Shown here: piece after piece, positions 3,400 through 28,364 of the stretch
Layout: every line of letters begins with the position of its first letter
Numbering within the stretch: the stretch's first letter is position 1
Assembly (NCBI RefSeq): GCF_013315695.1
Contig: NZ_CP054353.1
Length of the DNA: 64,000 nt
Direction: 5' to 3' (one strand)
From: Escherichia coli
GTDB taxonomy: Bacteria; Pseudomonadota; Gammaproteobacteria; Enterobacterales; Enterobacteriaceae
Notes under the pieces: generated by a model
What the model was told of the DNA's origin: nothing
What the model saw: the letters and a program-made list of their open reading frames with translations, nothing else
Databases searched by the model: none
Position numbers and translations under genes: made by a program

Positions 3400-4596
3400 A
3401 TGGCTCAAGTTATTAATGAAATGGATGTTCCGTCCCATTCGTTTGTTTTTCATGGTACAGGTGAGAGATATTTTCTTATTTGTGTGGTGAATGTGTTGTT
3501 AACGATTATAACGCTAGGTATCTATTTACCATGGGCATTAATGAAATGTAGGCGTTATCTCTATGCTAATATGGAAGTTAACGGACAACGATTTTCTTAT
3601 GGAATTACTGGTGGGAATGTTTTTTTTAGTTGTCTTGTTTTTGTTTTTTTCTATTTCGCAATCTTAATGACAGTGTCAGCAGATATGCCGCTTGTTGGCT
3701 GTGTTTTGACTTTGTCACTGTTGGTTTTGCTTATATTTATGGCAGCAAAAGGACTGCGTTATCAGGCCTTGATGACCAGTCTCAACGGCGTAAGATTTAG
3801 TTTTAATTGCTCTATGAAAGGGTTCTGGTGGGTAACCTTTTTCTTGCCGATTTTAATGGCCATTGGGATGGGGACTGTTTTCTTTATCTCGACAAAGATG
3901 CTACATGCCAATAGTTCAAGTAGTGTTATTATATCTGTGGTTCTGATGGCAATAGTTGGTATTGTTTCCATTGGTATTTTTAATGGTACTTTATATAGCC
4001 TGGTAATGAGTTTTCTCTGGAGCAATACCAGTTTCGGTATACATCGTTTCAAGGTGAAATTAGATACTGCGTATTGTATAAAATATGCCATCCTCGCATT
4101 TTTAGCTTTATTACCTTTTCTCGCTGTTGCTGGTTATATTATCTTCGATCAAATATTAAATGCGTATGATAGTTCTGTGTATGCAAATGATGATATTGAG
4201 AATTTACAGCAATTTATGGAAATGCAACGTAAAATGATAATCGCGCAGTTAATCTATTATTTTGGGATTGCTGTTAGCACCAGTTATTTAACGGTGTCGT
4301 TGCGAAATCATTTTATGAGCAACCTGTCACTGAATGATGGGCGTATTCGTTTTCGCTCAACTTTAACATACCACGGTATGCTTTATCGCATGTGTGCGTT
4401 GGTGGTGATATCCGGGATTACGGGCGGTCTGGCTTATCCACTGCTGAAAATATGGATGATTGACTGGCAGGCAAAAAATACGTATTTGCTGGGCGATTTG
4501 GATGACCTTCCTTTAATCAATAAAGAAGAACAACCAGATAAAGGCTTCTTAGCCAGTATTTCACGGGGAATTATGCCTTCTTTACCATTTCTGTAA
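3400..4596 (+). CDS. yjgN: DUF898-type inner membrane protein
   Basis: Multi-pass hydrophobic protein; start chosen at internal ATG (MAQVINEMD) to give 398 aa as in K-12 YjgN. Confidence 0.8.
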   Translation: MAQVINEMDVPSHSFVFHGTGERYFLICVVNVLLTIITLGIYLPWALMKCRRYLYANMEVNGQRFSYGITGGNVFFSCLVFVFFYFAILMTVSADMPLVGCVLTLSLLVLLIFMAAKGLRYQALMTSLNGVRFSFNCSMKGFWWVTFFLPILMAIGMGTVFFISTKMLHANSSSSVIISVVLMAIVGIVSIGIFNGTLYSLVMSFLWSNTSFGIHRFKVKLDTAYCIKYAILAFLALLPFLAVAGYIIFDQILNAYDSSVYANDDIENLQQFMEMQRKMIIAQLIYYFGIAVSTSYLTVSLRNHFMSNLSLNDGRIRFRSTLTYHGMLYRMCALVVISGITGGLAYPLLKIWMIDWQAKNTYLLGDLDDLPLINKEEQPDKGFLASISRGIMPSLPFL

Positions 4597-4604
4597 GAGA
4601 TAAA

Positions 4605-4640
4605 AAAGGCCGGAGCATGCTCCGGCCTTCGTTTTCATCA
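4605..4640. terminator. Bidirectional rho-independent terminator between yjgN and valS
   Basis: Perfect GC-rich hairpin aaggccggagcatgctccggcctt flanked by A-run and T-run. Confidence 0.65.
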
Positions 4641-4651
4641 CTGTGTTTTGA

Positions 4652-14055: not shown

Positions 14056-15075
14056 TCAGAAGTCAGCTTTCAGGACTACTCGGTAGCGAGCTTTACCATC
14101 GCGTACATGCTGAATGGCGTCGTTAATTTTCGACATCGGGAACAGTTCGGTTGTCGGCGCAACCTTGCTGCGGGCGGCAAAGCGCATCAGCTTTCGCAGC
14201 TCATAAGGCGTGCCGGTAGCAGAACCAGAGATGCTGCGGTCGCCCGCAATTAACGTAAAGGCCGGAACAGACAGCGGCGTGAGAACCGCACCGACCGTAT
14301 GGAAATTACCGCCATAGGTCAGCGCCTCAAAATAAGGCTGCCAGTCGAGGCTGACGTTCACAGTATTGATAATGAGATCAAACTGCCCCGACAGGGCTTT
14401 CAGTGCCTGCGGATCGCGGCTATTCACCACTTTATCGGTACCCATCGCCAGTACTTCCTGCTCTTTCGCCGGATTAGAACTAAAGGCCGTCACCTCGCAT
14501 CCCATTGCGTGCAGAAGTTTTATAGCGATATGCCCCAGCCCGCCAATACCAATTACCCCAACGCGGCTGGTAGCAGTGATATGGTGCATCAACAGTGGTT
14601 TAAAGACCGTGATACCGCCGCACAACAGCGGCCCGGCGGACTCGATATCAATATTTTCTGGCAGTGGAATCACCCATTGCCAGTCCGCACGCAACTTCTC
14701 GGCAAAGCCACCGCGATTCATAATCGTCGGCACCGCACCTTGCTCGCAGTTGATCTGATTACCGCTAATACAGGCGTCGCAGTGACCACAGCTACGCGCC
14801 GTCCAGCCAATCCCGACACGCTGACCGACCTGCAAACCTTTATCCTGCGCGGCGCTCCCGAGTGCCACCACGCGCCCAATCACCTCATGCCCGGCAACCA
14901 GCGGATATTGTGAAAATCCCCATTCGTTATCGATCATCGACAGATCGGAATGACAAATCCCGCAGTAATCCACCTGCACTTCAACATCTTGTGGCTTCAG
15001 CTCACCGGGATCGTACTCATAAACTTCCAGTTCGCCGCCCGCTTCTTTTGCGGCATAGCTTTTTATCATCGACAT
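14056..15075 (-). CDS. ahr: NADPH-dependent aldehyde reductase, zinc-type alcohol dehydrogenase family
   Basis: Zn-binding GHE and CGxCxxC motifs plus GxGxxG Rossmann motif; start set at MSMIKSYAA (339 aa). Confidence 0.9.
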
Positions 15076-15270
15076 TTTTGGGTCCTTCTCTGGTGTTGTT
15101 TGGGAAGTGTAGAGCATGGCAGGGCGGGGTGCCTGGAGTGTGACAAAGGTTACATATCGCTGAGTGTAATGCTGAAAATTTCAGCACTTAGCGAGGTGGG
15201 TGCAAGCTGGCGCTTGCATGGTGGCGTGCGACAGGTATAATCCACAACGTTTTCCGCATACCTCTTCAGT

Positions 15271-15355
15271 GCCGAAGTGGCGAAATCGGTAGACGCAGTT
15301 GATTCAAAATCAACCGTAGAAATACGTGCCGGTTCGAGTCCGGCCTTCGGCACCA
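15271..15355 (+). tRNA. leuX: tRNA-Leu (anticodon CAA)
   Basis: 85-nt sequence gccgaagtggcgaaatcggtagacgc...ggcacca with long variable arm and CAA anticodon loop, ending in CCA. Confidence 0.92.
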
Positions 15356-15357
15356 TC
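15313..15357 (+). repeat. Direct repeat copy 1 (leuX 3-prime end, attachment-site core)
   Basis: 45 bp identical except one mismatch to 25708-25752. Confidence 0.8.
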
Positions 15358-15889
15358 TACATTTTCCTCTTGAAAAACAAGCGATTAAGTAAATTATTTT
15401 ACCTTTTTTGCCTATCTAATCTTCACTGATTCTTTCCCGTATAAAAGCCACTGTGATTGTTAATGGCTTTGGTATGTTAGCACGCAGTGGCAAGTAGTTA
15501 CCAGGCTCAACCTTGTACTGCATACGCCAGTATGCCCCCCTTTGAAGCAGGAAGACGCGCCGCCGTCTCTAAACCTATGCCAAGCACTTTTAACCGTTCC
15601 ACACTTAGTTCGGCGTTCCGTTCAAGCCTGTCGTGGTGACTTACCACGAATAAACAAGCAAATTCGCGGTATGGTATTCGTTACGAGAGCGGTTAACTGA
15701 CAAGACTCCTGTGATACGCCTAAGGTGCTTAAATTGATGCGTCCAACATGGCACAAAAGGCGGTCTATCGTTTAATTTTGCTCCATACATCAACTGGCAT
15801 TGCCAGCTGTATGGGGCTTGGTCTGCTGGTTCCGATGAACGGATTAAATTGCTAAGATGCAGACCATAAGCCATAAGGCGGAGATAAGT

Positions 15890-17098
15890 ATGAAATCTGT
15901 AGAACTATTTGCCGGTGCTGGTGGCTTGGCTATGGGTTGCGAAATTGCTGGTTTTGAGCATCTTGCAGTCGTTGAATGGGATAAATGGGCCTGTGATACC
16001 GTTAGAGAGAACAAAAAGAATGGCTTTCCGCTGTTGTCTGATTGGGATCTTTTTGAGGGTGATGTAAGAGAATTTGATTGGTCGAAAATCCCTAAAGGGA
16101 TTGACCTTCTTGCGGGAGGGCCACCTTGCCAGCCATTTTCAATCGGTGGTAAGCACAAGGCTAATTCTGATTCGCGGGACATGTTTCCAGCGACAGCAGA
16201 AGCGATCAGGCAAATTCGCCCTAAGGCTTTCATCGTCGAGAATGTGAAAGGCTTAACACGGGCAACCTTTGCGAGCTATTTCCAGTACATCCAGTTACAG
16301 CTTGAGTTTCCAGAAGTAGCCCCGCGAAATGGCGAAGACTGGAGCGAGCATTTAAAACGCTTGCAGGAAGAAAAAACCAGTGGAAAGAACAAAGGGAGAG
16401 GGCTGACGTATAACGTTCTGGCTACGTTAGTCAATGCAGCAGACTACGGCATCCCACAAAAACGTGAGCGTGTCTTCATTGTTGGCTTCCGCGATGATCT
16501 TGAAATTGAGTGGTCGTTCCCTAAACCGACACACAGTTATGATGCACTCGTTTATGATCAGTGGGTTACTGGTGATTACTGGAAACGACATGGTTTAGAA
16601 ATGCCAACTGTTCCAAGCCAGATGGTTAACCGTATCGCAAAATTGCGTAAAAATCCTCCCGATACACTTCCGTGGAAAACTGTTCGAGATGCAATCGCGG
16701 ATTTGCCAGATCCTGAAACAAAGGCGGCAAAGATGATCCGGAATCATGCGTTCCAGGCGGGGGCACGAACTTATCCCGGTCATACCGGAAGCCCCTTAGA
16801 TCTGCCAGCTAAAACGCTCAAAGCAGGTGCTCATGGCGTTCCTGGGGGCGAGAACATGCTTGTTCGTGATGATGGCTCAGTACGCTATTTTACTGTGCGA
16901 GAAAGTGCCAGAATTCAAACATTTCCCGATAGTTATCGTTTTCACGGGAGTTGGACTGAAACTATGAGGCAGTTAGGTAACGCTGTGCCGGTTCATTTGG
17001 CGTATTGCGTTGCCAGCAGTGTAGCGGAAAAGCTGCTGACCTCTGAAATTGGGAACATCCTTAAGCAGGGTGGCAATTATAAAAGGGCTTCTGCATGA
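15890..17098 (+). CDS. DNA (cytosine-5)-methyltransferase, Type II R-M modification subunit
   Basis: Motif I FAGAGG, motif IV GGPPCQPFS, motif VI ENVKGL; start set at MKSVELF with GGAG RBS. Confidence 0.88.
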   Translation: MKSVELFAGAGGLAMGCEIAGFEHLAVVEWDKWACDTVRENKKNGFPLLSDWDLFEGDVREFDWSKIPKGIDLLAGGPPCQPFSIGGKHKANSDSRDMFPATAEAIRQIRPKAFIVENVKGLTRATFASYFQYIQLQLEFPEVAPRNGEDWSEHLKRLQEEKTSGKNKGRGLTYNVLATLVNAADYGIPQKRERVFIVGFRDDLEIEWSFPKPTHSYDALVYDQWVTGDYWKRHGLEMPTVPSQMVNRIAKLRKNPPDTLPWKTVRDAIADLPDPETKAAKMIRNHAFQAGARTYPGHTGSPLDLPAKTLKAGAHGVPGGENMLVRDDGSVRYFTVRESARIQTFPDSYRFHGSWTETMRQLGNAVPVHLAYCVASSVAEKLLTSEIGNILKQGGNYKRASA

Positions 17099-17745
17099 CA
17101 GGAAAGGTCATACCATTTAATCCACTTGATAAACAAAATTTAGGTGCCAGCGTTGCGGAAGCCTTATTGAGCAAAGATGCTCATCCTCTGGAGGAGTTAA
17201 CCTCATTTCAAGGAGCAGGGATTTACGCAATTTATTACACTGGCGATCATCCTGCTTATAGGCAACTGGCAGAACTGAATCGTGACGGGCAATTTCGATT
17301 GCCTATCTACGTGGGTAAGGCCGTCCCAGCAGGGGCGAGAATGGGGCTTACCAACCCTGATAAGGTTGGTAACGTTCTGTTTAGGCGCTTGAAAGAACAT
17401 GCAGAAAGTATTCGCGCAGCGGAAAATCTTTCGATTGAAGATTTTTATTGTCGATTTTTGGTTGTTGATGACATCTGGATCCCATTGGGAGAATCGCTGG
17501 TTATCTCTCGCTTTAAACCGATTTGGAATTCGTCTATTGATGGTTTCGGTAATCATGACCCAGGTAAGCATCGCTACACTGGTTTACGTCCTCGCTGGGA
17601 CTTTATGCACCCGGGGAGAGGATGGGCTCAAAATTTACGTGAGCGTGATGAAACTGTGGATGAACTCATTCGTGATTCTATACAGTATCTTCAGAATTTA
17701 CCGCCTTGCTTGGCTCAGAAATTTATCGAAGCTGAAGGCGATTAA
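17095..17745 (+). CDS. GIY-YIG family restriction endonuclease (Eco29kI-like)
   Basis: GIYAIYY ... YVGKA motifs; 216 aa; start overlaps the methyltransferase stop (ATGA). Confidence 0.6.
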   Translation: MTGKVIPFNPLDKQNLGASVAEALLSKDAHPLEELTSFQGAGIYAIYYTGDHPAYRQLAELNRDGQFRLPIYVGKAVPAGARMGLTNPDKVGNVLFRRLKEHAESIRAAENLSIEDFYCRFLVVDDIWIPLGESLVISRFKPIWNSSIDGFGNHDPGKHRYTGLRPRWDFMHPGRGWAQNLRERDETVDELIRDSIQYLQNLPPCLAQKFIEAEGD

Positions 17746-17866
17746 TCAGCAAATGATCATCGGAGGCATCTGCCTCCGAATGTGATTAAGCCTTGGTTGA
17801 CAAAGTGGTTGCTTAAAACATTAAGCGTTAATTTTCTGGCCCTCTACCTTCTGACGTGCATAATTC

Positions 17867-18442
17867 TCAAATATCAGGGAGTTGCAAGAACGACTTAAGT
17901 CGGTAGAAGGTTGCTTTGCTGATCTCTAACCTATCCTGGACCGCTGCTGGTGGTAATCCTCGTGCTAATAACTCACGTACTTGTTCAACGGTTGCTTTGA
18001 TCGGTCTGCCGCAATGCTTACCTTCCGACTGAGCTCGTTTGATTCCTGCGGCTCTACGCTCTGCGATTAGGTCTTTTTCCAGGCTGGCAAGTCCTGCCAT
18101 CATAGTGAGCATGGCTTTACCCACTGGTGTTGAAAGATCAAACCCCTCTCGCAAGCTGACAACCTTCACACCCTTCATTTGCAACATTTCAACAGTAGAT
18201 AGTACATCGATAGTGTTACGTCCCAAGCGGTTTATAGCAATCACGATCAGCGTATCGCCTTCTCGCACATAATTGAGTAGTTCAGCAAACCCTGGACGCT
18301 CTCCTGCCTTGATTGCACCACTCACCGCTTCATCACTAAACCAGCGAGTTACGCTATAACCAGCATCGGCTATCTGCTTCTTCTGGTTTTCAACGTTTTG
18401 ATCGCTGGTGGAAACTCGCACATATCCGATCACAGTTGTCAT
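17867..18442 (-). CDS. serine recombinase (resolvase/invertase family)
   Basis: N-terminal GYVRVSTSDQ catalytic serine motif and C-terminal HTH; 191 aa. Confidence 0.88.
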   Translation of the reverse strand: MTTVIGYVRVSTSDQNVENQKKQIADAGYSVTRWFSDEAVSGAIKAGERPGFAELLNYVREGDTLIVIAINRLGRNTIDVLSTVEMLQMKGVKVVSLREGFDLSTPVGKAMLTMMAGLASLEKDLIAERRAAGIKRAQSEGKHCGRPIKATVEQVRELLARGLPPAAVQDRLEISKATFYRLKSFLQLPDI

Positions 18443-18449
18443 GATGTTC

Positions 18450-18580
18450 TCTAAGTCTCAAAAGGTAGTGTCAAAATAATAGCTGTCTCAAAATTAAAGA
18501 TCAACCTTTTGAGACAAGGCGAAGCCGCATTCTGTCGTTGCGTCGGTGTGGTCTTATAAGGAGATGGTTTTGAGACTGGA
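18450..18580. promoter_or_regulatory. Candidate recombination (res-like) site upstream of the serine recombinase
   Basis: Four copies of GTCTCAAAA: two direct (18456, 18485) and two inverted (18507, 18568). Confidence 0.35.
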
Positions 18581-18681
18581 TAGCAGCGGTTTAGGAATAG
18601 AGGCTTGGAACGAGAGTATGGGGAGAATGGAAATTCGGAATGGGCGGTCAACTTATTGGGCGTGATTGCTCACGCCTTTGT

Positions 18682-19033
18682 TTAGATCTCAGAACACAGG
18701 CTCAGCGTGTAGAGTGCCGTTTCACCATCGTTGTTAGTTGGGCGCATAACGAAAACTGGATCACTGCCGTTGTCGATGTAAGTAACCGCTATTCCACCGT
18801 CTGGGGTGGCGTACATCTTCGCAATACTTTTCTCTCCAATGAAACCCAGCCGCCAGGTTTTACCACCCATGCTCACTTTCATGATTTTGTCCCGCACATC
18901 GAGGCGAGTTTCGACAGACGATTTTTGGCTACCAGAATCTATCTGCCCTTCCTGAATGGCCTTACAGGTGAATGTGGTTGCACTTGAGGCGAAGGGGGGG
19001 GACGAGCAGCGCCGCGAGAATCAATTTTTTCAT
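18682..19033 (-). pseudogene. Small secreted protein gene disrupted by a frameshift in a G8/C8 homopolymer
   Basis: ATG at 19033 encodes signal-peptide-like MKKLILAALLVPP, then the frame breaks at the C8 run (18994-19001); removing one C fuses it to ORF 18682..18897. Confidence 0.5.
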
Positions 19034-19213
19034 GGTCTTCCTTTTGGATACGAGTTAAGAGTTCGTCGGGAGACATTATAAAATCTTTAATTGATAAAAA
19101 CGATCAATTTCTATCGTATTGATCGATAAAATTGATCATAATTGAAACTATAAATCCTACGCTCAGTCGTTATGGATGAGGTTTTTTATAAGAGAACTCA
19201 ACGGGATGATGTT

Positions 19214-19420
19214 ATGAAAAGAGCAATGATGGTGATGTGTGGGCTACTGTTTTCACAGTTGGTAGCAGCAGGGCAGATCACAATGATCGATCCCCAGCAG
19301 GATACGACGGAGAATGGCAAGACGCTTTGCACCTACGAGAACAGCCAGTATGTTTTTACCTACGTCACTAAAGGGCAGTGCCCCTATGCAAAGACTTTCG
19401 ATACTCAGGATTCAGAGTAG
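19214..19420 (+). CDS. small putative secreted protein (about 68 aa, two Cys)
   Basis: Internal start MKRAMMVMCGLLFSQLVAAG gives a signal-peptide-like N-terminus. Confidence 0.4.
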   Translation: MKRAMMVMCGLLFSQLVAAGQITMIDPQQDTTENGKTLCTYENSQYVFTYVTKGQCPYAKTFDTQDSE

Positions 19421-20490
19421 AGGCTGCATAAAATAGGAAGTGTTGTTTAACTTCATGAAAAGACAGGTGTGCTTAGCACAAGCCTCCAACGGATTGATTG
19501 TTAATTCTTCTGATAACGGCACAGCGCAAGGCTTTACGCAAAGAGAGTGATAGTTACTATCTTGATGACTATGGCAATTTTCCCCCTGTAACAACGGCAT
19601 TCATTACCTGCTAATTACCAGCGGATTACGCGCCAGTTTGATGGGAATTAACTCAGGGTTATTGCATGGGGTAGTGTGGAGTGAGCAGGGTGACAGTCTA
19701 CCGTTGGGTGAAGGGCTGATAGGTAATCGACGCGAAGCGCCGGAACCATACTGTTATGCGCTGGCCTTGGTGCCAGGCTCACGCCGCGCATGAAAGATAG
19801 CCATTACAGGAGAGATAATTTTTGACAAGTTACCTTCATCAAAGGTGCTTCTCCTGTATAAATGCTTGTTATGCTCGCTATGCTCCCAAACACAAACCCA
19901 TTAAACCCAACTAACTTAAGGTTAGTTAATTGGTTTTCTCTCTCTCTTGGGCTACTACCGCCCAAACTTTGCTTAATGCCATACAGCGACTACGCCGCCA
20001 TTAACAACACTCCACAATGATCCAATGGCATTCCTGCTTAATGTCATCCACCGATCTTGATTAGCCACCAACCAAACAACCACCCTAAATCTTTTAGGCT
20101 GTCTGTTTATCTGGTGCAAGGTAGCTATGACATTACCATACGTGCAAACATCCCAAGCCAATCATCACTGATTGGCTCGTGCTGATGCACTTCAGTGCAG
20201 AGAGAGAATCTCTCTACTATTATAGCGTATTTAGTAGGTCCCTGTATTTAAAGGAAAAATTAGGGTGAAAATCGCCATTGTTCACTTTTTTTCTCAAGAA
20301 ATGGCGAGATGCTGTTCGTAAATGGGAGGCATGGCTGTCTTCTCTGGTGGCAAGTTCTACCACAAATTTTGATTGACAGCAACCATCTATTTCTGGTATA
20401 AGAAGCACTAATTGCAAAGCAAAAATGCAACTAATTGAAAATGACCAAAAATATTTCATGAGATCACCGTTTGGGTATTGACAAACGTTA

Positions 20491-20781
20491 GTGGTCTATG
20501 GTATTCTTAATACTAAGAAGGGGAGAAAACCTTCTGAACTTTTCAGCCCTGGGCAGGGTAACTGCCTGGGGCTTTTTGCATCCAAAATCCGAAGGAGGCC
20601 ATTATTGAAGTATTACAGCAGTGACCAGATTTTTAATGACCTGGTGAGCGGCGAAGTGAAACGCCACGTTATTTACGCATCTATGCAAGCAGCAAAATCG
20701 AGAGGGTATACAGACCGAATGGAAATGTTTCAATCTGCAATTATCCGTTATGACCAACACCGAAGGGAGAACACCAACTAA
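20491..20781 (+). CDS. small hypothetical protein; true start may be the TTG at about 20608 after the AAGGAGG RBS
   Basis: ORF 10 nt upstream of the 306-aa ORF; strong RBS aaggagg at about 20593. Confidence 0.4.
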   Translation: MVYGILNTKKGRKPSELFSPGQGNCLGLFASKIRRRPLLKYYSSDQIFNDLVSGEVKRHVIYASMQAAKSRGYTDRMEMFQSAIIRYDQHRRENTN

Positions 20782-20790
20782 GGAGGAACA

Positions 20791-21711
20791 TTGATTCAAG
20801 CATACGAAGACGGCTATTTTTACAGAGATACCCCGCACCACGATCACTGCCCGCTTTCAGCATTTTCCAGACCATCCCAGCAATTCATCGTTATTGATAA
20901 TGTTCTGTACGTTGTCGAAGTGGAAAGTGGTGAAATTCTTCACTACGACTCGACAGAGTATTTGCTTGATGGTGGCATTGTTCAGGATCTGCATTTGAGT
21001 TACTCGACAGCAGACACCGCCAAATCAAAACAGGCTCACCGTGAATACGCTAATAAGCTGGGCGACCTTCCAGGGAATGCAGCCTATAACGGGATCAAGG
21101 AATACGCAGACGTATTAAGCAAGCCAGATTTCAAGAAAGTATTTGCATTGTGTCAGGAAGTAGATAGACGCAATGTAGTGTTTATAAAACGTGCGGATTT
21201 GAGCATAATACTGAACACCACGCCGGATCATCTCAATCGTGTATTATCTGCTCTTGAACGTAAGCACTACATCAAAGTTGATAAAGCTGAACACCAGAAA
21301 GGAGTATTAAAACTGTGGGTTAATCCTTCGTTTGTCTGGAAGGGTGATTCAGCTAACCGCTACTTATCTGGATATTTGCAGGGCTTCCCAATCTTGGAAC
21401 GTAAACGCTCCACAAAACGTTCTGACGTGCTCGACACGCTCACGGCTGCTGCAATGGTTGCCTTTGATACCTGGCACATTGAACACGGTTATAAGGCCAA
21501 TCAGCCTCATTCTAATGAATGGTATGCAGAGATCACGATGTACGAAAACGCCTACGGCGAAGGGGTGAGGCTTGCAGCAGAAAATAAGACATTGAACAAG
21601 TTATTGAACCCGGCAACATCTGAGGGGGATTTCGTTTATGAGCTATTCACTACGGCACAATACAGGGAATACCTGCAAACATTGGCAAAACAAGTAAGGA
21701 GATTACACTGA
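20791..21711 (+). CDS. hypothetical 306-aa protein with possible winged-helix segment
   Basis: Long ORF with GGAGG RBS; no recognisable catalytic motif. Confidence 0.6.
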   Translation: MIQAYEDGYFYRDTPHHDHCPLSAFSRPSQQFIVIDNVLYVVEVESGEILHYDSTEYLLDGGIVQDLHLSYSTADTAKSKQAHREYANKLGDLPGNAAYNGIKEYADVLSKPDFKKVFALCQEVDRRNVVFIKRADLSIILNTTPDHLNRVLSALERKHYIKVDKAEHQKGVLKLWVNPSFVWKGDSANRYLSGYLQGFPILERKRSTKRSDVLDTLTAAAMVAFDTWHIEHGYKANQPHSNEWYAEITMYENAYGEGVRLAAENKTLNKLLNPATSEGDFVYELFTTAQYREYLQTLAKQVRRLH

Positions 21712-21995
21712 ACCAATGTTTTGTAATAAAGAAGCCAGCACAATACTTATTTGAACTAAATTAAGCAACTCTCATACACACCGCTCTTTTGGTGAGTTAT
21801 TTATTACTATCTTTAAGGTGATGAGTGTTTATACTGTATTAAATTATTATAAATAAGGGGATGGTGTATGATTACAGCTCTTTATTGGTGTTTGTTCTTT
21901 CAGTTTGCGCTGTATTTTTTGTCTAAATTAAATTTAAATTGAAAATTAGCCCTGATCTTGAAATAGTTCAGGGCTGGAATTTCTAAAAAATAACA

Positions 21996-22955
21996 TCAGT
22001 GTGCTTTTAGTTCATCTTTAGCTAATGAGTCATAGAGTATTTTTGTGAGCGGAGACTCTAAATAATCATCACTAAGTAGTTTAATAAAATGCTTTTGGGA
22101 TTCTTTTGTTTTTACGAGCAATTGTGTGCCGTCTTCACTTACAATTAAAACTGTTGAAAGATAGGTATGCTTGCTTACATAATCGATAATTTCTGGCACA
22201 TCAATTTTCCCCAGTACAGGTGAGTGTTTGGCAATTTTGGCAAGCTTCCTTGAGAAAGAAATTTCTTTTGCACTCTTCTCAAGGTGAGTAAGATCTTCGA
22301 TAAGCAATGAAGCTTTCAATGCTTCCAAAGCCACCGTTGCTTGAGCTTCAATAACCTGATGGAACTGCATCGTTATTTCTAAAGTTTTTTGATTTTTTAT
22401 CAGGAATTCGTCGTCTATAAGAGCCAAGTCATAATTATAATCTAATCGGAACACTTGGGTTGGCAATTCTTTTAAATACCCGTCTGCGTCTGGTATCAAG
22501 TTAAACAATTTTCGGCTTTGCTCAAAAACCATGAGGTTTGTTTTGTTCTTATACAATGACAAACACTTATTGTTGCCTCTTAACTGAATTATTATCCCTT
22601 TCACGTCAGTAAATTTATTATTTAAATCATAATAATCCTGAGAGTTAGGCGGTATGGCTATTGCATTTTTTATAAAATCAAACTCTTTTGGATGTTCTTC
22701 ATAATCAAATGCAAACAAGGCATTTTTTCTATCATCAAAATTCGAAAGGAGAGGAATGGTTAAATCCTCATTTGTCACAATGTCGTCGTAAAGCCTAATT
22801 TTGAATCCTTCAACAATTTTTGGTAAAGCTTCAGCATCTATTTTAGATAATTTTAATTCATAATTATCTTCAGTTTTAACTATAAAGATAATTCTTATAC
22901 CTGAGAAATTATCGAAAATTTCGGTGATTTGATTTTTAAAATTCACAGGGGTCAT
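21996..22955 (-). CDS. 319-aa soluble protein, KwaB-like (candidate Kiwa component)
   Basis: Co-oriented with and overlapping the membrane protein gene; size and order match the Kiwa KwaA-KwaB arrangement. Confidence 0.55.
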   Translation of the reverse strand: MTPVNFKNQITEIFDNFSGIRIIFIVKTEDNYELKLSKIDAEALPKIVEGFKIRLYDDIVTNEDLTIPLLSNFDDRKNALFAFDYEEHPKEFDFIKNAIAIPPNSQDYYDLNNKFTDVKGIIIQLRGNNKCLSLYKNKTNLMVFEQSRKLFNLIPDADGYLKELPTQVFRLDYNYDLALIDDEFLIKNQKTLEITMQFHQVIEAQATVALEALKASLLIEDLTHLEKSAKEISFSRKLAKIAKHSPVLGKIDVPEIIDYVSKHTYLSTVLIVSEDGTQLLVKTKESQKHFIKLLSDDYLESPLTKILYDSLAKDELKAH

Positions 22956-23572
22956 TATTTTTTCCTTGCTATGAAAACGTAGTCATCAAAAAAACTATAG
23001 AATACTTGATCGTCAACAGTCAGCACATCCATCGAGATTGCAATGACGTTTTTTACTTCACCACTTCCTGCATGAGAAATGTTAACTCTATACAACTTAT
23101 AACCGAAAAGCGCCAAAGTAGGATTCGCATAATACTTATCCGTTTTAATGAAAATTAAACCAATAACTACTATTAAGAGAAAGTACGCAATGTTTTTCTG
23201 AGGGTCATCAAAACTGAATCCCATAAAAGGTACTATGTAAGTTGCTAAGAAAGTCAAACTTTCATAGCTCTCACTTTGGCAAGCAGTGATTGTTACACAG
23301 TCAGCATTGTTGACCTTCGTCAATCCTTTAAACCTTCTATAGAAATAAAATGCTATTCCTATAAAAATTAAACAAATTATTGAGATTATGTTGCTGGAAG
23401 CTAATTGATAAAAACCTATAAAATGGCAGGAAGAGCCATAACAAAATGGGATTTTTGCGCTCAAAATGATAATAAAAACAAACAGCAACATTAAAGACAG
23501 TATGTATAGTCCCATCTTGTTGAATGTGCTTTTTCGTTTCATGTTATCCCCCAGTGATGAAATCATAATCAA
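22955..23572 (-). CDS. four-TM membrane protein, KwaA-like (candidate Kiwa component)
   Basis: 205 aa with four hydrophobic helices; AT-rich; stop overlaps start of downstream gene. Confidence 0.6.
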   Translation of the reverse strand: MIMISSLGDNMKRKSTFNKMGLYILSLMLLFVFIIILSAKIPFCYGSSCHFIGFYQLASSNIISIICLIFIGIAFYFYRRFKGLTKVNNADCVTITACQSESYESLTFLATYIVPFMGFSFDDPQKNIAYFLLIVVIGLIFIKTDKYYANPTLALFGYKLYRVNISHAGSGEVKNVIAISMDVLTVDDQVFYSFFDDYVFIARKK

Positions 23573-23826
23573 AACTTGATCATGTGAACATCAAAAGCAT
23601 ACCTTAAAGCACTGGTTTTTTGTACAGCAATCGGCAAATTCATGCGTACTATCGAACTTACAAGAGGACGCATAGTAGATTTTCTGATCCAAATTGCCAT
23701 CATGTACTTTTAATTCATGTAGAGTAGCCAATGAAGTATCAGCAATTACATGATTTTATTGTCTATTTTTTATGTTTTTTTGTAAAACACCAGAAGATTG
23801 AAAAGGGCCAATGAGGCCCCTTGGCG

Positions 23827-24078
23827 TTATTTACGGTTTTTGTTGGATTGAGCCAGCACGGAAGCAGCAAGCTGCTTGGTTAAAGTACTGGAACGTGGAT
23901 TATCCAGCGCCGCAGATGCTTTATGTTCCATTGCACCACTTGTCTGATTTGAGGAACCTTTTTGAGAGAGAGCTGAACCAGCAAGGCTCTTCTGAATTGC
24001 AGATGCGTTGGGGTTGTTTAGGGTTTGTGCTGCGACTGATGCGACTTTACTTGATGTTTGCTTTGAATTGTTAGCCAT
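23827..24078 (-). CDS. small S/A/Q/N-rich protein with internal repeats
   Basis: ORF with repeated KxxASxxAQ-like segments; start set at MANNSK. Confidence 0.35.
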   Translation of the reverse strand: MANNSKQTSSKVASVAAQTLNNPNASAIQKSLAGSALSQKGSSNQTSGAMEHKASAALDNPRSSTLTKQLAASVLAQSNKNRK

Positions 24079-24309
24079 TCTCAACACCTATTCAAGAAGT
24101 GAATTATTGAACATCTTGTATTTAAATCAAGAATGAATACAAGATGTAGTGTTAATGATAATCCTCACCGCTTCGCTGTGCAACGATGAAAAATCTCTTT
24201 ACTGGATAAAACTACAGTTTTAAAAATGTGCGGTATTTCTGCTTTCAAATTGGCTTAATGTGCATACATTTAGATGATACCACTGCGTTTTCTGATCGTT
24301 ATTCGTTCA

Positions 24310-25593
24310 CTATTTATCAGTTTTCTCACGTTGGGGCTCCGTCTCTATCTCTGGGTAACGTAATAGCTCGATGTATGGCTGTAGTTCAATCGGAGATGCT
24401 GCATTCTTGCTGTACGTCTTGAAACTTTCTGTAGAGCCGCGCTCATGACCCAAGAGAAGTGCGATCCGGTCTTCTGTAACTGGTTTTAACTTACCTCGTC
24501 CAACCCCCCCACGATCCAGAATCTGCGCCACTGCATGGCGTAGACTGTGAAAAACTTTCAACTCTGATCCTACTTCCCCCAATGCCTTACGTTTAGCCCT
24601 CGTAAAACGCTGTGAATGCCACGTAGAGCGCTTTCCATCTGCGCGGTCAGCTATCGACGCACGATAGAATAAAAAGCCGTTATGGGGCTTCTCACGCAGC
24701 GACAAAACCAACGGAGTGATCAGGCTATGCACCGGAATAATACGGGCTGCTGATTTGGTCTTCCCCTCCGTCACTTCGAAACATAACACCCCTTCAATCT
24801 CTCGGATGTTGGCTGCACGTAATGAACAAATTTCATTCAGGCGCATACCGCTATACATCCCGATCAGCGTTACATTTTGCATCTCTTCATCATTCGCCAT
24901 CACAGCGAACACCTTCGCCAATTCTCCAGGCTCAAATACTTCATAACTCACCTTGCTACTTTTGGCCTCCAGCGCATGACCGCGCCAGATGTTTTCTTGC
25001 GGTGCATCGTGGTAGCGATTACGGGCCAGATCCCAGATTTGAGCCAGTGCGCTGACATAGTTTTGTATGGTCTGTGGTGCTTTCTCCGTCTTGAGCTGAT
25101 CAAGCCAGCCTGTAACGGTGGTTCGGTTAACGTCACGAAGCTGAACATCACGCTTTTTCAGATGTTCTAAGAGCACTTCAACAGCCTTGTTTGTCTTCGA
25201 TAGCGTAGTGAGTTTGCGCTTCTCGCTGAACTGCAATAGATAAAGATCACGCATTTTCAGGAGGGATGGCACTCCTTGGGATTGGGTATTGCTCATGACA
25301 TGCTGAACAGGTGTTTCATGAACTCGGGCGCTAACTCTGCGTAGCTCTGCAATTGCCTGCTCAATCTTACTCCCTTCTCTTGGTTTGACCTGTTCCCGTA
25401 AACGTATCCATTCAACAGCGATAGCATCTCTGAACAATCGCGCCTGACGTATGTCACTTGTGCCAGTGCTCTTGACGAAGTAGCGCTTGTTGCCAAAAAG
25501 CGAGCGCATGTAAGCTGGAACGGTAATCCTTACCAGATAGTTTCCGCATGGATCTAAAACTAAGTAACGATCTCTCTTGAAACTCATGTTCAC
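24310..25593 (-). CDS. tyrosine-type site-specific integrase
   Basis: C-terminal catalytic region with HSLRH and LLGH motifs; adjacent to the distal direct repeat. Confidence 0.88.
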   Translation of the reverse strand: MNMSFKRDRYLVLDPCGNYLVRITVPAYMRSLFGNKRYFVKSTGTSDIRQARLFRDAIAVEWIRLREQVKPREGSKIEQAIAELRRVSARVHETPVQHVMSNTQSQGVPSLLKMRDLYLLQFSEKRKLTTLSKTNKAVEVLLEHLKKRDVQLRDVNRTTVTGWLDQLKTEKAPQTIQNYVSALAQIWDLARNRYHDAPQENIWRGHALEAKSSKVSYEVFEPGELAKVFAVMANDEEMQNVTLIGMYSGMRLNEICSLRAANIREIEGVLCFEVTEGKTKSAARIIPVHSLITPLVLSLREKPHNGFLFYRASIADRADGKRSTWHSQRFTRAKRKALGEVGSELKVFHSLRHAVAQILDRGGVGRGKLKPVTEDRIALLLGHERGSTESFKTYSKNAASPIELQPYIELLRYPEIETEPQREKTDK

Positions 25594-25707
25594 CCCGGCT
25601 ATTTTGTAAGGGCTTTTACATGGGGAAGTTTCCTGTGTAGATTGTTGGAGCGGCGAATTATTAGCAGTTGATTCAATAGCTTAGATCAGCTTGCTGGACA
25701 AGCGAAC

Positions 25708-25752
25708 ACCGTAGAAATACGTGCCGGTTCGAGCCCGGCCTTCGGCACCATC
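25708..25752 (+). repeat. Direct repeat copy 2 (partial leuX 3-prime end)
   Basis: accgtagaaatacgtgccggttcgagcccggccttcggcaccatc matches tRNA 3-prime end 15313-15357 with one mismatch. Confidence 0.8.
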
Positions 25753-25948
25753 GGAACATCAATAGACGTCAACGGACGTCTTTTTTTGTGCCTAAAATCC
25801 AGTATCCGCAAGGCTTTCCTCGCTTTTTCACTCAACCTAAGTCAACCTGATTCAATCTACATCAACTTACTGATGCGGGTACAACTGCGGGTATTTCCCG
25901 GTTCGATAATGTTTGTACCCACACAGAACCCTTGAAAGGATACTCATC

Positions 25949-27126
25949 ATGGCTCTGAGTGATGTGAAGGTTCGTTCGGCTAAGCCTGAAGCAAAAGCCT
26001 ATAAGCTGACCGACGGTGAAGGCATGGTTTTGCTGGTTCACCCTAACGGCTCCAAATACTGGCGGCTACGTTATCGCTTTGGCGGTAAAGAGAAGATGCT
26101 GGCATTGGGGAAATACCCCGAAGTGTCGTTGGCGGATGCCAGGGCACGCCGGGATGAGGCTCGTAAGCTTTTAGCTAATGGTGTCGATCCCAGTGAAAAC
26201 AAGAAAGCTGTTAAGGTAGAATAGGAACAAGAGGCGATAACGTTTGAAGTAGTCGCCAGAGACTGGCACGCCAGCAATCAGAAGTGGTCGGCATCGCATA
26301 GCGCTCGTGTTTTGAAAAGTCTGGAGGATAATCTCTTTACTGCTATCGGTAAGCGGAACATTGCGGAACTGAAGACGCGGGATCTTCTTGTACCCATTAA
26401 AGCAGTCGAGTCATCCGGGCGGCTCGAAGTTGCCGCCCGTTTACAGCAGCGTACTACCGCGATTATGCGCTTTGCCGTTCAGAGCGGCTTAATCGACTAC
26501 AACCCCGCGCAAGAGATTGCAGGTGCGGTTGCTACGGCGAAAAGACAGCACCGTGCAGCTCTTGAACTGAACCGTATACCTGAATTACTTCATCGCATAG
26601 ATCACTATTCTGGCAGACCGTTAACTCGACTGGCGGTTGAACTCACTTTATTGGTTTTCATCCGTTCGAGCGAGCTGCATTTTGCCCGCTGGTCAGAAGT
26701 AGATTTTGAAACGGCTATGTGGACAATCCCAGGTGAGCGTGAGCAACTGGAAGGAGTCAAGCATTCTCAGCGTGGCTCGAAGATGCGGACACCACACCTT
26801 GTACCTTTGTCGCGGCAGGCCCTAAGTATTTTGGAAAAGATCAAAAGCATGAGCGGAAATTGAGAGCTGATTTTTGTGGGCGATCACGATCCACGTAAGC
26901 CGATGAGTGAGAATACGGTGAACAAGGCTTTGCGCGTAATGGGGTATGACACGAAGGTCGAGGTTTGTGGGCATGGCTTCAGGACGATGGCTTGTAGTTC
27001 GTTGATTGAGTCGGGATTATGGTCGAGGGATGCGGTAGAGCGGCAGATGAGTCACCAGGAGCGTAGCTCTGTGCGAGCCGCTTACATCCATAAGGCGGAA
27101 CATCTTGGGGAGCGTAGGTTGATGTT
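25949..27126 (+). pseudogene. intB: P4-type integrase, fragmented and truncated by IS911
   Basis: N-terminus MALSDVKVRSAKPEAKAYKLTDGEG; reading frame broken into three ORFs; 3-prime end replaced by IS911 left end. Confidence 0.8.
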
Positions 27127-27198
27127 TGAAGTGGCACACTGAATTTGGCCACCTGAACAGAGGTGATATGCTCACCTCAGAACAACACAGGTGCTCCA

Positions 27199-28364
<1,166 letters not shown>

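Follow-up and report, generated by a model that had tools for sequence, protein, structure and literature searches.

The 83-codon open reading frame on the minus strand at 23827..24078 of the window, the whole 64-kb stretch of E. coli DNA analyzed here, is a real gene, conserved and under selection. It belongs to a family that is stand-alone cargo of genomic islands, ICEs, plasmids, and prophages in Proteobacteria, and its product is not a subunit or a dedicated regulator of the Kiwa defense system encoded next to it. A LexA box and a leader inverted repeat are found ahead of the gene. The explanation that we favor, as somewhat more likely than not, is that of an autonomous, SOS-inducible mobile accessory gene that acts by binding and independently of Kiwa.

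A conserved small gene with an internal repeat

The coding sequence (WP_003845544.1, a RefSeq "hypothetical protein") starts with an ATG at 24078..24076 and ends with a TAA at 23829..23827, which specifies 83 aa. Direct reading of the sequence placed a Shine-Dalgarno-like AGGTG (24085..24089, minus strand) 6 nt 5′ of the ATG, and either AGGTG or AAGG occupies the matching position in the Enterobacterales homologues. The upstream GTG start at 24087 that appears in the mechanical ORF list was discarded; it falls within the Shine-Dalgarno element, and the ATG is the start in PGAP as well as in the homologues. A terminator-like hairpin (23801..23822, minus strand), with an 8-bp stem (AAGGGGCC / GGCCCUUU), a 5-nt loop, and a short U tract, begins 4 nt past the stop codon (−13.4 kcal/mol, z = −2.95). 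Because of the short U tract, a consensus terminator scan made no call at 23801..23822, and some read-through toward kwaA is therefore possible.

The sequence-only reading had described a low-complexity ORF with internal repeats lying between an integrase gene and a Kiwa operon, and each of these points held. Position and length are as it gave them, and the composition (S16 A15 N9 K8 Q7 L7) is dominated by S, A, N, and Q, which account for 47 of the 83 residues (57%); the protein has a GRAVY of −0.63 and a pI of 10.8. The repeat, of ∼35 aa, is real: residues 5 to 39 align with residues 43 to 77 with a BLOSUM62 local score of 69, a value not attained by any of 2,000 composition-preserving shuffles (25.9 ± 5.0). 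Both neighbors were confirmed by Pfam and NCBIfam matches.

The gene has a PGAP annotation in 6 complete E. coli genomes, and the family as a whole is present in 3% of the complete genomes of this species, EPEC E2348/69 included. Homologues keep the same length in three tallies, of 188 clusters, of 272 representatives, and of at least 1,900 clusters (90% identity). Those of 80 to 85 aa are distributed over Enterobacterales, Vibrio, Pseudomonas, Burkholderiales, Acinetobacter, and Alphaproteobacteria. dN/dS ratios were 0.03 to 0.13 for the window gene against its relatives, with a median of 0.14 over 215 pairs, synonymous sites being saturated among the homologues. Comparison of related islands, the check proposed along with the initial description, revealed a clearly conserved frame. 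Together with the ribosome binding site (RBS), the hairpin after the stop, the PGAP annotation, and purifying selection, this substantiates the earlier suggestion of a possible real small protein.

A basic protein of two predicted helical hairpins

Strong positive charge is a family trait: the pI exceeds 9 in 98% of the members, and net charges in the family have a median of +7. Aromatic residues and Cys are nearly absent. AlphaFold2 predicted four helices arranged as two hairpins, with no strands (mean pLDDT of 73). A Foldseek search with the predicted structure returned nothing at E < 1, and the likeness to HEAT/Armadillo helical-hairpin repeats is limited to unspecific hits on fragments of very large proteins that are unrelated in sequence. 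The one match of a PDB profile search, the PsaF transit peptide, was rejected as low-complexity. Likewise, a 5,614-aa "homologue" (P0250) is T/A/S-rich and autotransporter-like, and its match was therefore regarded as a composition artifact. No Pfam domain was detected in family members with a C-terminal extension or a tandem duplication, which thus provide no fusion hint to function.

The window protein matched PHROG 5079, a phage protein group with no functional annotation, in two stretches (E = 3.9e-22). The 49-position profile of this group corresponds to one repeat, a unit that is duplicated in tandem in the window protein. The lysogeny region of Streptococcus prophage Javan290 encodes another member of PHROG 5079, a homologue of 48 aa that has a single repeat and a basic tail.

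Searches of Pfam and NCBIfam at E ≤ 1 yielded no family besides Con-6 (PF10346), which the window protein matches with 16.1 bits (E = 0.011), below the gathering score of 25. Sub-threshold Pfam matches of this kind occur in 12 of 39 family members (best E = 2e-4). Alignment of the family with 41 real Con-6 proteins by hhalign keeps the two repeats in register along 67 columns (28% identity, P = 0.0032). The two groups share a common plan of about 85 to 95 aa with two repeats and a core L-x-N-P-N-x-S-x-x-x-K...L, or more fully L-x-[ND]-P-[NK]-x-S-x-x-x-K-x-x-A/S-x-x-x-L, and both are very hydrophilic; the Con-6-type layout of two tandem ∼34-aa repeats in a ∼90-aa protein is present in the window protein. 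These similarities would fit a bacterial counterpart of the fungal Con-6 spore proteins, i.e., a hydrophilin-like stress protectant rather than a nucleic acid binder. We consider this unlikely. The hhalign probability is just 9.9%, the Pfam gathering score is missed, the invariant GG-x-KA opening of the Con-6 repeats is absent from the family, and the strong positive charge is conserved in it. A profile search for a Con-6-annotated tail recovered close family members alone. Con-6 is fungal (conidiation protein 6; ConF and ConJ in Aspergillus), whereas the family is found in bacteria, on mobile elements. Because what Con-6 itself does is poorly defined, the analogy predicts little. Homology to Con-6 is hinted at by these alignments but not established.

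A LexA box precedes the gene in most Enterobacterales loci

On the minus strand at 24200..24219, 122 to 141 nt 5′ of the ATG, lies a LexA (SOS) box of the CTG-N10-CAG type, AACTGTAGTTTTATCCAGTA. It scored 20.1 bits, within the 12.7 to 26.8 bits of known E. coli boxes, with a matrix of 19 boxes, of which uvrB and recA alone were checked against K-12. This is the top matrix match in the whole 64-kb window, in which a matrix-free pattern has just two matches, and it differs by 2 nt from the K-12-verified uvrB box. Family genes are preceded by LexA boxes far more often than control segments: 36 of 103 upstream regions had a matrix match (1.9% of 1,030 controls), and 31 of 103 contained this matrix-free pattern (1.2% of controls). 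The E2348/69 paralogue carries a 22.4-bit box at an equal distance from its start codon. The box is thus both enriched and conserved ahead of family genes, in 14 of 19 Enterobacterales loci and 7 of 17 loci from other Burkholderiales, with none in Caballeronia (0/21), Pseudomonas (0/5), Vibrio (0), or Acinetobacter (0). Since whole clades are devoid of a detectable box, SOS control would be lineage specific and not family-wide. The earlier label of "stress-type" protein is justified to the extent of this conserved box.

A putative sigma-70 promoter at 24155..24183 (minus strand) consists of a −35 element TTGCAC (24183..24178), a 17-nt spacer, and a −10 element TATCAT (24160..24155); a consensus promoter scan delimited it as TGCACA-16-TATCAT (24182..24155). 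In six loci, the LexA box falls between the −35 and the −10 element, as is classical for repression. In the window and in seven other Enterobacterales species-level loci, it is located ∼20 nt 5′ of the best −35 candidate, roughly at −60 from the inferred start. Because this is off the classical position, the promoter actually used may be one that overlaps the box, or else the mode of regulation is atypical. LexA binding, induction by the SOS response, and the position of the transcription start are given here as predictions from the sequence.

A conserved, gene-specific leader element

Between the putative promoter and the gene is an inverted repeat or hairpin (24111..24147, minus strand) composed of ACATCTTGTATT, 13 nt, and AATACAAGATGT, with perfect 12-bp arms. 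A 14-bp unit, CACTACATCTTGTA (24151..24138), forms part of this leader element, and in the homologues a −10-like hexamer immediately precedes the conserved unit. The predicted promoter would put this hairpin at the very start of the transcript. As RNA, the leader folds with −12.6 kcal/mol (z = −4.3), and RNAalifold predicted the identical helix. Over 21 loci, 87% of cells were paired, compared to 79.6 ± 1.5% in shuffled alignments (0/500), and the covariation score was 0.329 versus 0.199. A covariance model of the element (R1) gave 52 bits at 24105..24155 of the window, and all its matches at E < 0.01 in 990 kb were just upstream of family genes. Rfam had no match at E ≤ 1 in window positions 20000..28000 and none at gathering score in four homologous loci. 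The leader repeat is therefore conserved and gene specific, and it represents a candidate new cis-regulatory motif. Plain alignment of upstream sequences from distant genera displayed no conservation; the shared upstream elements surfaced through motif and hairpin searches alone. A wider regulon of the 14-bp unit was discarded, as its other matches in the window were at chance level (3 found versus 2.0 expected).

The element could act at either of two levels, RNA or DNA, which are indistinguishable because G·U and A·C mismatches are about equally frequent in it. As DNA, two inverted 14-bp units (CACWAYATRTWGTG) at the start of the gene's own transcript might be contacted by the two repeats of the protein, which would then be an autoregulator. 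The protein is basic and internally 2-fold, each unit is quasi-palindromic and lies just past the −10 element, where operators are typically located, and the unit accompanies the gene in Enterobacterales, Orbales, Vibrio, Pseudomonas, Roseateles, and Bordetella while being found nowhere else in the loci examined. However, the spacing between the arms varies from 7 to 21 nt, and the arms covary so that complementarity is kept: E. coli and Serratia differ by three double changes, and the pair 17-42 is UA in 10 sequences, AU in 9, and broken in 1. This covariation suits a hairpin more than it does independent operator half-sites. Searches with the protein detected neither an HTH nor any other DNA-binding signature. 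Together, these observations make autoregulation through the two units decidedly unlikely.

Autonomous cargo of mobile elements

The 157 nearest neighbors of family genes in 80 species-level homologous loci include 89 singletons, and the sole large neighbor clusters, htpG and ubiC, come from the Caballeronia clade, where the family gene is fixed between ubiC and htpG; both Caballeronia and Paraburkholderia have it as a fixed gene of the chromosome. Elsewhere, the contexts comprise ICEs with MobA relaxase, TraD, and H-NS; islands with Gabija, CBASS, or HEPN genes; small Acinetobacter plasmids; Roseobacter plasmids; and prophages. Literature searches retrieved no paper naming the protein accessions and no description of the family.

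In the window, the gene lies next to a tyrosine integrase gene (24310..25593, minus strand; Pfam Phage_integrase and DUF6538), with no tRNA attachment site by the integrase within 24000..28000. This arrangement raises the possibility of an excisionase, or RDF, for the adjacent DUF6538-type integrase, mediating SOS-induced excision of the island after DNA damage. SOS-controlled excision is a known theme, and excisionases, too, are small basic proteins whose genes often adjoin that of an integrase. In three lineages only, E. coli, Pseudocitrobacter, and Serratia, the gene for this small and very basic protein immediately follows the integrase gene in the same orientation, an order kept even though the Pseudocitrobacter and Serratia integrases are only 32 to 35% identical to that of the window, and in Salmonella and E2348/69 the gene adjoins an integrase at the island end. 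Nonetheless, most family members are not integrase adjacent. Such an integrase lies near the family gene in only two (L040 and L083) of the 80 species-level loci, the Caballeronia-clade gene is fixed between its two neighbors ubiC and htpG, and the 8- to 14-kb Acinetobacter plasmids have no integrase in the regions inspected. The predicted four-helix fold has no winged helix, nor was there any Pfam match to Xis, AlpA, or HTH families. We therefore regard the excisionase role as very doubtful.

Kiwa is a neighbor rather than a partner

KwaA (22955..23542; 192 bits versus a cutoff of 100) and KwaB (21996..22955; 245 bits versus a cutoff of 200) exceed the NCBIfam equivalog cutoffs, and the operon described in the sequence-only reading as Kiwa-like is thus Kiwa proper. 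That reading placed the 83-aa ORF in the promoter-proximal part of the defense operon, which would make its product an accessory subunit or a dedicated regulator of Kiwa within a three-gene operon. The gene does immediately precede kwaA in the same orientation, the identical protein always occurs in an int-X-kwaA-kwaB island, and there is a LexA box at both the gene and kwaA, so that co-induction is possible. Yet the constant co-occurrence of the exact protein reflects a single island lineage. KwaA and KwaB are nearby in 0 of 80 species-level homologous loci, and among the 171 E. coli genomes with a family member the gene is Kiwa adjacent in 6, all with this island, of which strains EcPF7 and NCTC9080 are example carriers. 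Conversely, the gene is missing from the Kiwa loci of O55:H7 strains DEC5E and RM12579 (L120 and L121), and a Serratia homologue retains the int-X arrangement with different cargo. The gene has a promoter-like region of its own. Between it and kwaA lie the terminator-like hairpin and then another LexA box with another −10 element, and the PADLOC models yielded 0 families at E ≤ 1. A role as a Kiwa component is highly improbable and close to refuted by this distribution; the functional tie implied by position is not supported by the comparison.

As for Kiwa itself, kwaA has its own conserved LexA box, at 23610..23629, and its own −10 element, both downstream of the terminator-like hairpin, and a strong LexA box occurs at the same promoter position in four divergent E. 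coli Kiwa operons. For comparison beyond E. coli, viral contigs provided no KwaB relatives, and a plasmid search for Kiwa delivered Bacteroidota (Emticicia) only, where the E. coli-type LexA motif is not expected to apply. LexA or SOS is not mentioned in the main Kiwa study, and titles retrieved with Kiwa and LexA suggest no link. If functional, the kwaA LexA box would link an antiphage system to the SOS response.

Finally, the earlier alternative of a spurious ORF arising from low-complexity sequence, to which the composition of the protein and an 87-aa mirror ORF on the opposite strand (23811..24074, with a like counterpart in Dickeya) might lend credit, is refuted for practical purposes by a minus-strand frame of constant length across hundreds of taxa with a dN/dS around 0.1, an RBS, a hairpin after the stop, and conserved upstream regulatory elements.

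Proposed function

The preferred reading is that of an autonomous, SOS-inducible accessory gene. It would form a single-gene transcription unit whose strongly basic, hydrophilic, all-alpha product is probably built of two tandem helical-hairpin repeats. Given the LexA box before the gene here and in most of its Enterobacterales relatives, repression by LexA is most likely, and expression would follow RecA-stimulated LexA cleavage upon DNA damage. The leader repeat or hairpin may add a second, gene-specific layer, either as an operator or by stabilizing or controlling the mRNA 5′ end. Neither catalytic-type residues nor a membrane segment nor a conserved partner gene was found in the product or the family; the protein most likely acts stoichiometrically, by binding a polyanionic host target that is universally present. 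Our tentative guess for this target, which could well be wrong, is DNA or the nucleoid, or else a repair complex bound to nucleic acid.

Small LexA-regulated proteins of enterobacteria and their mobile elements include DinI/ImpC, YebG, and PsiB. These are likewise encoded in single-gene units with a CTG-N10-CAG box, often on plasmids, ICEs, or prophages, and, like the 83-aa protein, presumably work by binding rather than catalysis. They have no sequence similarity to it, however, and DinI-type proteins are acidic, whereas the 83-aa protein is basic.

A more far-reaching reading, rather unlikely to hold in all its parts, would make the family a previously unrecognized mobile-element effector of the DNA damage response, induced by LexA cleavage. 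The small basic protein, with two hairpins or, in some prophages, just one, would bind DNA or else a RecA, LexA, or SSB-DNA complex and alter the fate of host or element during the SOS response, by DNA protection, SOS modulation, or the timing of excision or transfer. Its co-induction with an SOS-controlled Kiwa would turn the integrase-proximal end of the island into a DNA damage-responsive module, and the leader hairpin would represent a new type of cis-regulatory RNA, specific to this gene.

These findings correct a tempting misassignment, as the 83-aa gene is no Kiwa component. They also delineate a large family (at least 1,900 clusters) that is spread by mobile elements and has neither a Pfam or NCBIfam model nor an annotation. 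The conserved LexA box is the first tangible lead to the biology of this family, as it predicts induction by DNA damage, which is easy to test.

Conservation and selection of the small gene

As read from the sequence, the small gene (24078 to 23827, minus strand) extends over 83 codons from ATG to TAA, 6 nt downstream of an AGGTG motif (24089 to 24085, minus strand). Its product, MANNSKQTSSKVASVAAQTLNNPNASAIQKSLAGSALSQKGSSNQTSGAMEHKASAALDNPRSSTLTKQLAASVLAQSNKNRK, consists of S, A, N, and Q to 57%, has a GRAVY of −0.63 and a pI of 10.8, and lacks Cys, Trp, Tyr, and Phe. Residues 5 to 39 and 43 to 77 are two copies of one unit, with a local alignment score of 69 versus 25.9 ± 5.0 in shuffled sequences (0 of 2,000 shuffles equal it). 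Upstream, a domain match identifies a tyrosine integrase with a DUF6538 N terminus (24310 to 25593, minus strand), and the downstream neighbors exceed the NCBIfam equivalog cutoffs for KwaA and KwaB. The sequence-only reading, a repeat-containing S/A/Q/N-rich ORF between an integrase and a Kiwa-like operon, was confirmed in every particular. Five complete E. coli genomes match this region at 100% identity, and in them PGAP lists the ORF as hypothetical protein WP_003845544.1.

Homologs amounted to 188 clusters in a word-seeded search, 272 proteins at E ≤ 1e-3 in an exhaustive search of 1.84 billion representatives, and at least 1,900 clusters at E ≤ 1 in a profile search. Nearly all members are 80 to 85 aa long and align collinearly over their entire length, with the consensus M-x-K-N-x-K-Q-T-S ... 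LAGSALSQ ... Q-T-G-x-x-M-E ... LAASVLAQSNK-x-R. Relatives differ from the window gene by a nonsynonymous divergence of 0.04 to 0.28, with synonymous sites at or near saturation and dN/dS of 0.03 to 0.13; over the family, the median dN/dS is 0.14 (215 pairs with 0.1 < dS < 1.5). Conservation of the frame across related islands had been proposed earlier as the test between a real small protein and a spurious ORF. The frame is kept, and homologs of constant length with low dN/dS bear out the former option; with the minus frame conserved and under selection, a spurious ORF is effectively excluded, to near certainty. The small gene is overlapped on the opposite strand by an 87-aa ORF (23811 to 24074, plus strand), of which the Dickeya homolog has an equivalent; since the selection signal sits in the minus frame, this ORF is best explained as the usual mirror artifact of an Ala/Ser-rich coding sequence.

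Predicted fold and family architecture

AlphaFold2, run with a 39-sequence alignment, predicted four helices (residues 10 to 21, 27 to 40, 48 to 59, and 65 to 76) forming two helical hairpins (mean pLDDT, 73; pTM, 0.58). Positive charge is a property of the family: among 300 members, pI exceeds 9 in 98% and the median net charge is +7, while aromatic residues and Cys are almost absent. The small protein belongs to no Pfam or NCBIfam family, but it is matched by PHROG 5079 (function unknown; E = 3.9e-22), whose 49-position profile corresponds to one repeat. A 48-aa member with a single repeat and a Lys/Arg tail is encoded in the lysogeny region of Streptococcus prophage Javan290. From this single-repeat member and the one-repeat profile, it follows that in the E. 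coli protein a hairpin unit is duplicated in tandem. Architectural variants of the family (proteins P0141, P0159, P0187, P0234, and P0235, and positions 4501 to 4647 of locus L125) include 48-aa single-repeat forms in Streptococcus prophages and longer forms that either match over a second stretch or share a C-terminal extension (…FPVKSFPI-x-GSSLTK-x-ERV…), for which Pfam gave no match.

Genomic contexts and independence from Kiwa

Public assemblies have the identical protein on record in 2,285 blocks, and at 10 of 10 places inspected it lies within one island, ordered int-X-kwaA-kwaB-wHTH ... resolvase-Eco29kI R-M (X, the small gene), which is one mobile lineage despite differing left-hand neighbors. 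In the window this island spans ∼11 kb (∼14300 to 25600). Besides the DUF6538-type integrase, X, and kwaAB, it encodes a winged-helix protein, small hypothetical proteins, and a serine recombinase, together with an Eco29kI-type restriction-modification pair. It is found intact beside differing left-hand neighbors in different E. coli genomes and is thus a mobile defense island; no tRNA gene adjoins its integrase. Directly beyond the island integrase lies another tyrosine integrase, of P4 type, which is degenerate and interrupted by a stop (25913 to 27142). Next come an IS3-family element whose orfA and orfB show a frameshift arrangement (27163 to 28364) and then, in the matching genome, IS66, IS110, and IS21 fragments; the region resembles an integration hotspot populated by decayed elements.

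Other homologs occupy other settings. Those of Serratia (74% identical) retain the integrase-X order, with an integrase just 35% identical and Abi or HNH cargo downstream in place of Kiwa. Dickeya homologs reside in an ICE, adjoining MobA relaxase, TraD, and H-NS; those of Vibrio and Pseudomonas head islands with PD-(D/E)XK, HEPN, Gabija-like, or CBASS genes; and those of Salmonella and E. coli E2348/69 stand at the end of a type IV pilus ICE-like island. Further homologs occur on 8- to 14-kb Acinetobacter plasmids and on Roseobacter plasmids, and those of Caballeronia and Paraburkholderia have a fixed place between ubiC and htpG. Among the nearest neighbors of family genes at 80 species-level loci, 89 of 157 are singletons. 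The record "Acinetobacter phage MD-2021a" (L126), with paa catabolic genes and uvrB around the homolog, looks like bacterial chromosome sequence mislabeled as phage. The E. coli paralog, ∼75% identical in DNA, is present in ∼165 complete genomes, including EPEC E2348/69 and O111 strains. In E2348/69 (locus L122, 5956 to 6207) and in the Salmonella locus L025, it lies at the integrase end of the pilus island, which in E2348/69 has a shufflon-type PilV and a tRNA-Asn gene ∼5 kb beyond the paralog.

The sequence-only reading had placed the ORF in the defense operon, a link that disappears outside the one island lineage. KwaA and KwaB were not found by tblastn in 80 species-level homologous loci, and of 5,426 complete E. 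coli genomes, 171 have a family member but only 6 have it next to Kiwa. Conversely, the Kiwa loci of O55:H7 DEC5E and RM12579 contain no family gene, and PADLOC has no model for the small protein. As far as distribution can tell, the gene is unrelated to Kiwa function, and a role as Kiwa subunit or regulator is so improbable as to be effectively excluded. The evidence supports an autonomous single-gene unit, a stand-alone cargo of mobile elements.

Putative control elements of the small gene

A predicted LexA box, AACTGTAGTTTTATCCAGTA, matches the LexA matrix 122 to 141 nt upstream of the ATG (24219 to 24200, minus strand). The matrix was built from 19 E. coli LexA boxes, of which those of uvrB and recA were checked against K-12. 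At 20.1 bits (known boxes, 12.7 to 26.8) this is the top match in the 64-kb window, differing from the uvrB box at two positions. Boxes of ≥12.7 bits precede 36 of 103 nonredundant family genes versus 1.9% of controls (1,030 random 300-nt segments of the same loci); a matrix-free pattern gave 31 of 103 versus 1.2%, with only two matches in the whole window. By taxon, boxes were present in 14 of 19 Enterobacterales and 7 of 17 other Burkholderiales upstream regions, and in none of 21 from the Caballeronia clade or 5 from Pseudomonas. Six species-level Enterobacterales loci have the box between −35 and −10 (e.g., Klebsiella, cTTGATTacatgaCTGTATATGAATACAGTATAC), the classical repressing arrangement. 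In eight others it lies ∼20 nt upstream of the best −35, as does the window's box relative to the best promoter candidate of a promoter scan (TTGCAC-17-TATCAT; 24183 to 24155, minus strand). The E2348/69 paralog has a 22.4-bit box at the same distance from the start codon as in the window gene. These matches support placing the gene under a putative LexA box in Enterobacterales and part of Burkholderiales, where, given such a box, it would probably be expressed during the SOS response.

A few bases past the −10 candidate, the leader contains an inverted repeat, ACATCTTGTATT-N13-AATACAAGATGT (24147 to 24111, minus strand). Equivalents in Enterobacterales and Orbales have 8- to 14-bp stems and 7- to 21-nt loops and occupy positions 75 to 33 nt before the ATG. 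In a 21-locus alignment, 12 leader pairs were formed in 87.3% of cells versus 79.6 ± 1.5% with shuffled partners (0 of 500), these counts being of sequences rather than independent evolutionary events; the covariation score was 0.329 versus 0.199 ± 0.022 (0 of 500 shuffles), and slid controls reached 15 to 58%. Pair 17-42 is U-A in ten sequences, A-U in nine, and broken in one. RNAalifold returned the same helix, and the window copy folds as RNA at −12.6 kcal/mol (z = −4.3). Across 990 kb of loci, the matches with E < 0.01 to a covariance model built from this alignment all lie shortly before family genes, among them the nonseed loci of Pectobacterium, Bordetella ansorpii, and E2348/69; no Rfam family matches the repeat. 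Exact copies of the 14-mer CACWAYATRTWGTG were found in 14 loci, each time just upstream of a family gene, and the 14-mer is also present ∼200 to 230 nt from the ATG in Vibrio and Pseudomonas. Each arm of the repeat is itself quasi-palindromic. Since G.U and A.C mismatches occur in the arms at about the same frequency, the pattern is compatible alike with an RNA hairpin, a DNA-level structure, or a symmetric operator. The evidence supports a second control element, specific to this gene, where the leader begins. In Dickeya, Vibrio, and Pseudomonas, an ORF-free stretch of ∼750 to 800 bp precedes the gene (L003, 5204 to 6001; L007, 5246 to 6001; L011, 5218 to 6001); a perfect DnaA-box-like TTATCCACA ∼330 nt upstream is common to the Vibrio and Pseudomonas copies, as are additional long hairpins in the leader.

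Four nucleotides past the stop codon is a GC-rich 8-bp hairpin with a short U tract (23822 to 23801, minus strand; −13.4 kcal/mol, z = −2.95). A consensus terminator scan made no call on it, so partial read-through is possible.

A LexA-type site upstream of kwaA

The only other strong LexA-type match in the window, TGCTGTACAAAAAACCAGTG (23629 to 23610, minus strand; 17.0 bits, the next scoring 11.1), falls in the interval that separates the small gene from kwaA; it precedes a −10-like TATGCT by 8 nt and the ATG of kwaA by ∼70 to 90 nt. Stronger matrix matches (22.2, 24.5, and 23.6 bits) occupy the same place in three further Kiwa operons of E. coli, which stand in different genomic contexts and have 88%, 75%, and 67% nucleotide identity to the window kwaA region (DEC5E locus L120, 2999 to 3018; RM12579 locus L121, 2898 to 2917; and locus L002, 7911 to 7930). 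A −10-like hexamer follows the box in both Kiwa loci with flanks read (L120 and L121), and homology among the Kiwa cassettes begins right at the box. The predicted sites suggest that Kiwa may be SOS-repressed; the main Kiwa study nowhere mentions LexA or SOS, and a literature search for Kiwa and LexA returned no title pointing to a link.

Possible roles of the small protein

Being small, with conserved charge, no catalytic-type residues, and no conserved partner gene, the protein would probably act stoichiometrically, by binding a universal polyanionic target. We tentatively favor DNA or the nucleoid, or nucleic acid bound by repair complexes, as a possible target. A Con-6-like protectant seems rather unlikely. 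Con-6 proteins, retrieved with a query 94% identical to a Neurospora entry, resemble the family in plan and core motif, but homology is not established: sub-threshold Pfam Con-6 matches occur in 12 of 39 members, and in a profile-profile comparison the two repeats each aligned in register (67 columns, 28% identity; P = 0.0032) with a probability of just 9.9%. Autoregulation through the 14-bp units of the leader is improbable. An excisionase-like function, for a gene beside an integrase, is distinctly improbable; integrases related to the window's were found at only two of 80 species-level loci (L040 and L083), plus Serratia. The small gene is real and holds more interest than a spurious low-complexity ORF would. 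It is not a new kind of system: it is an uncharacterized example of a familiar class of mobile-element genes, small accessory ones preceded by LexA boxes.
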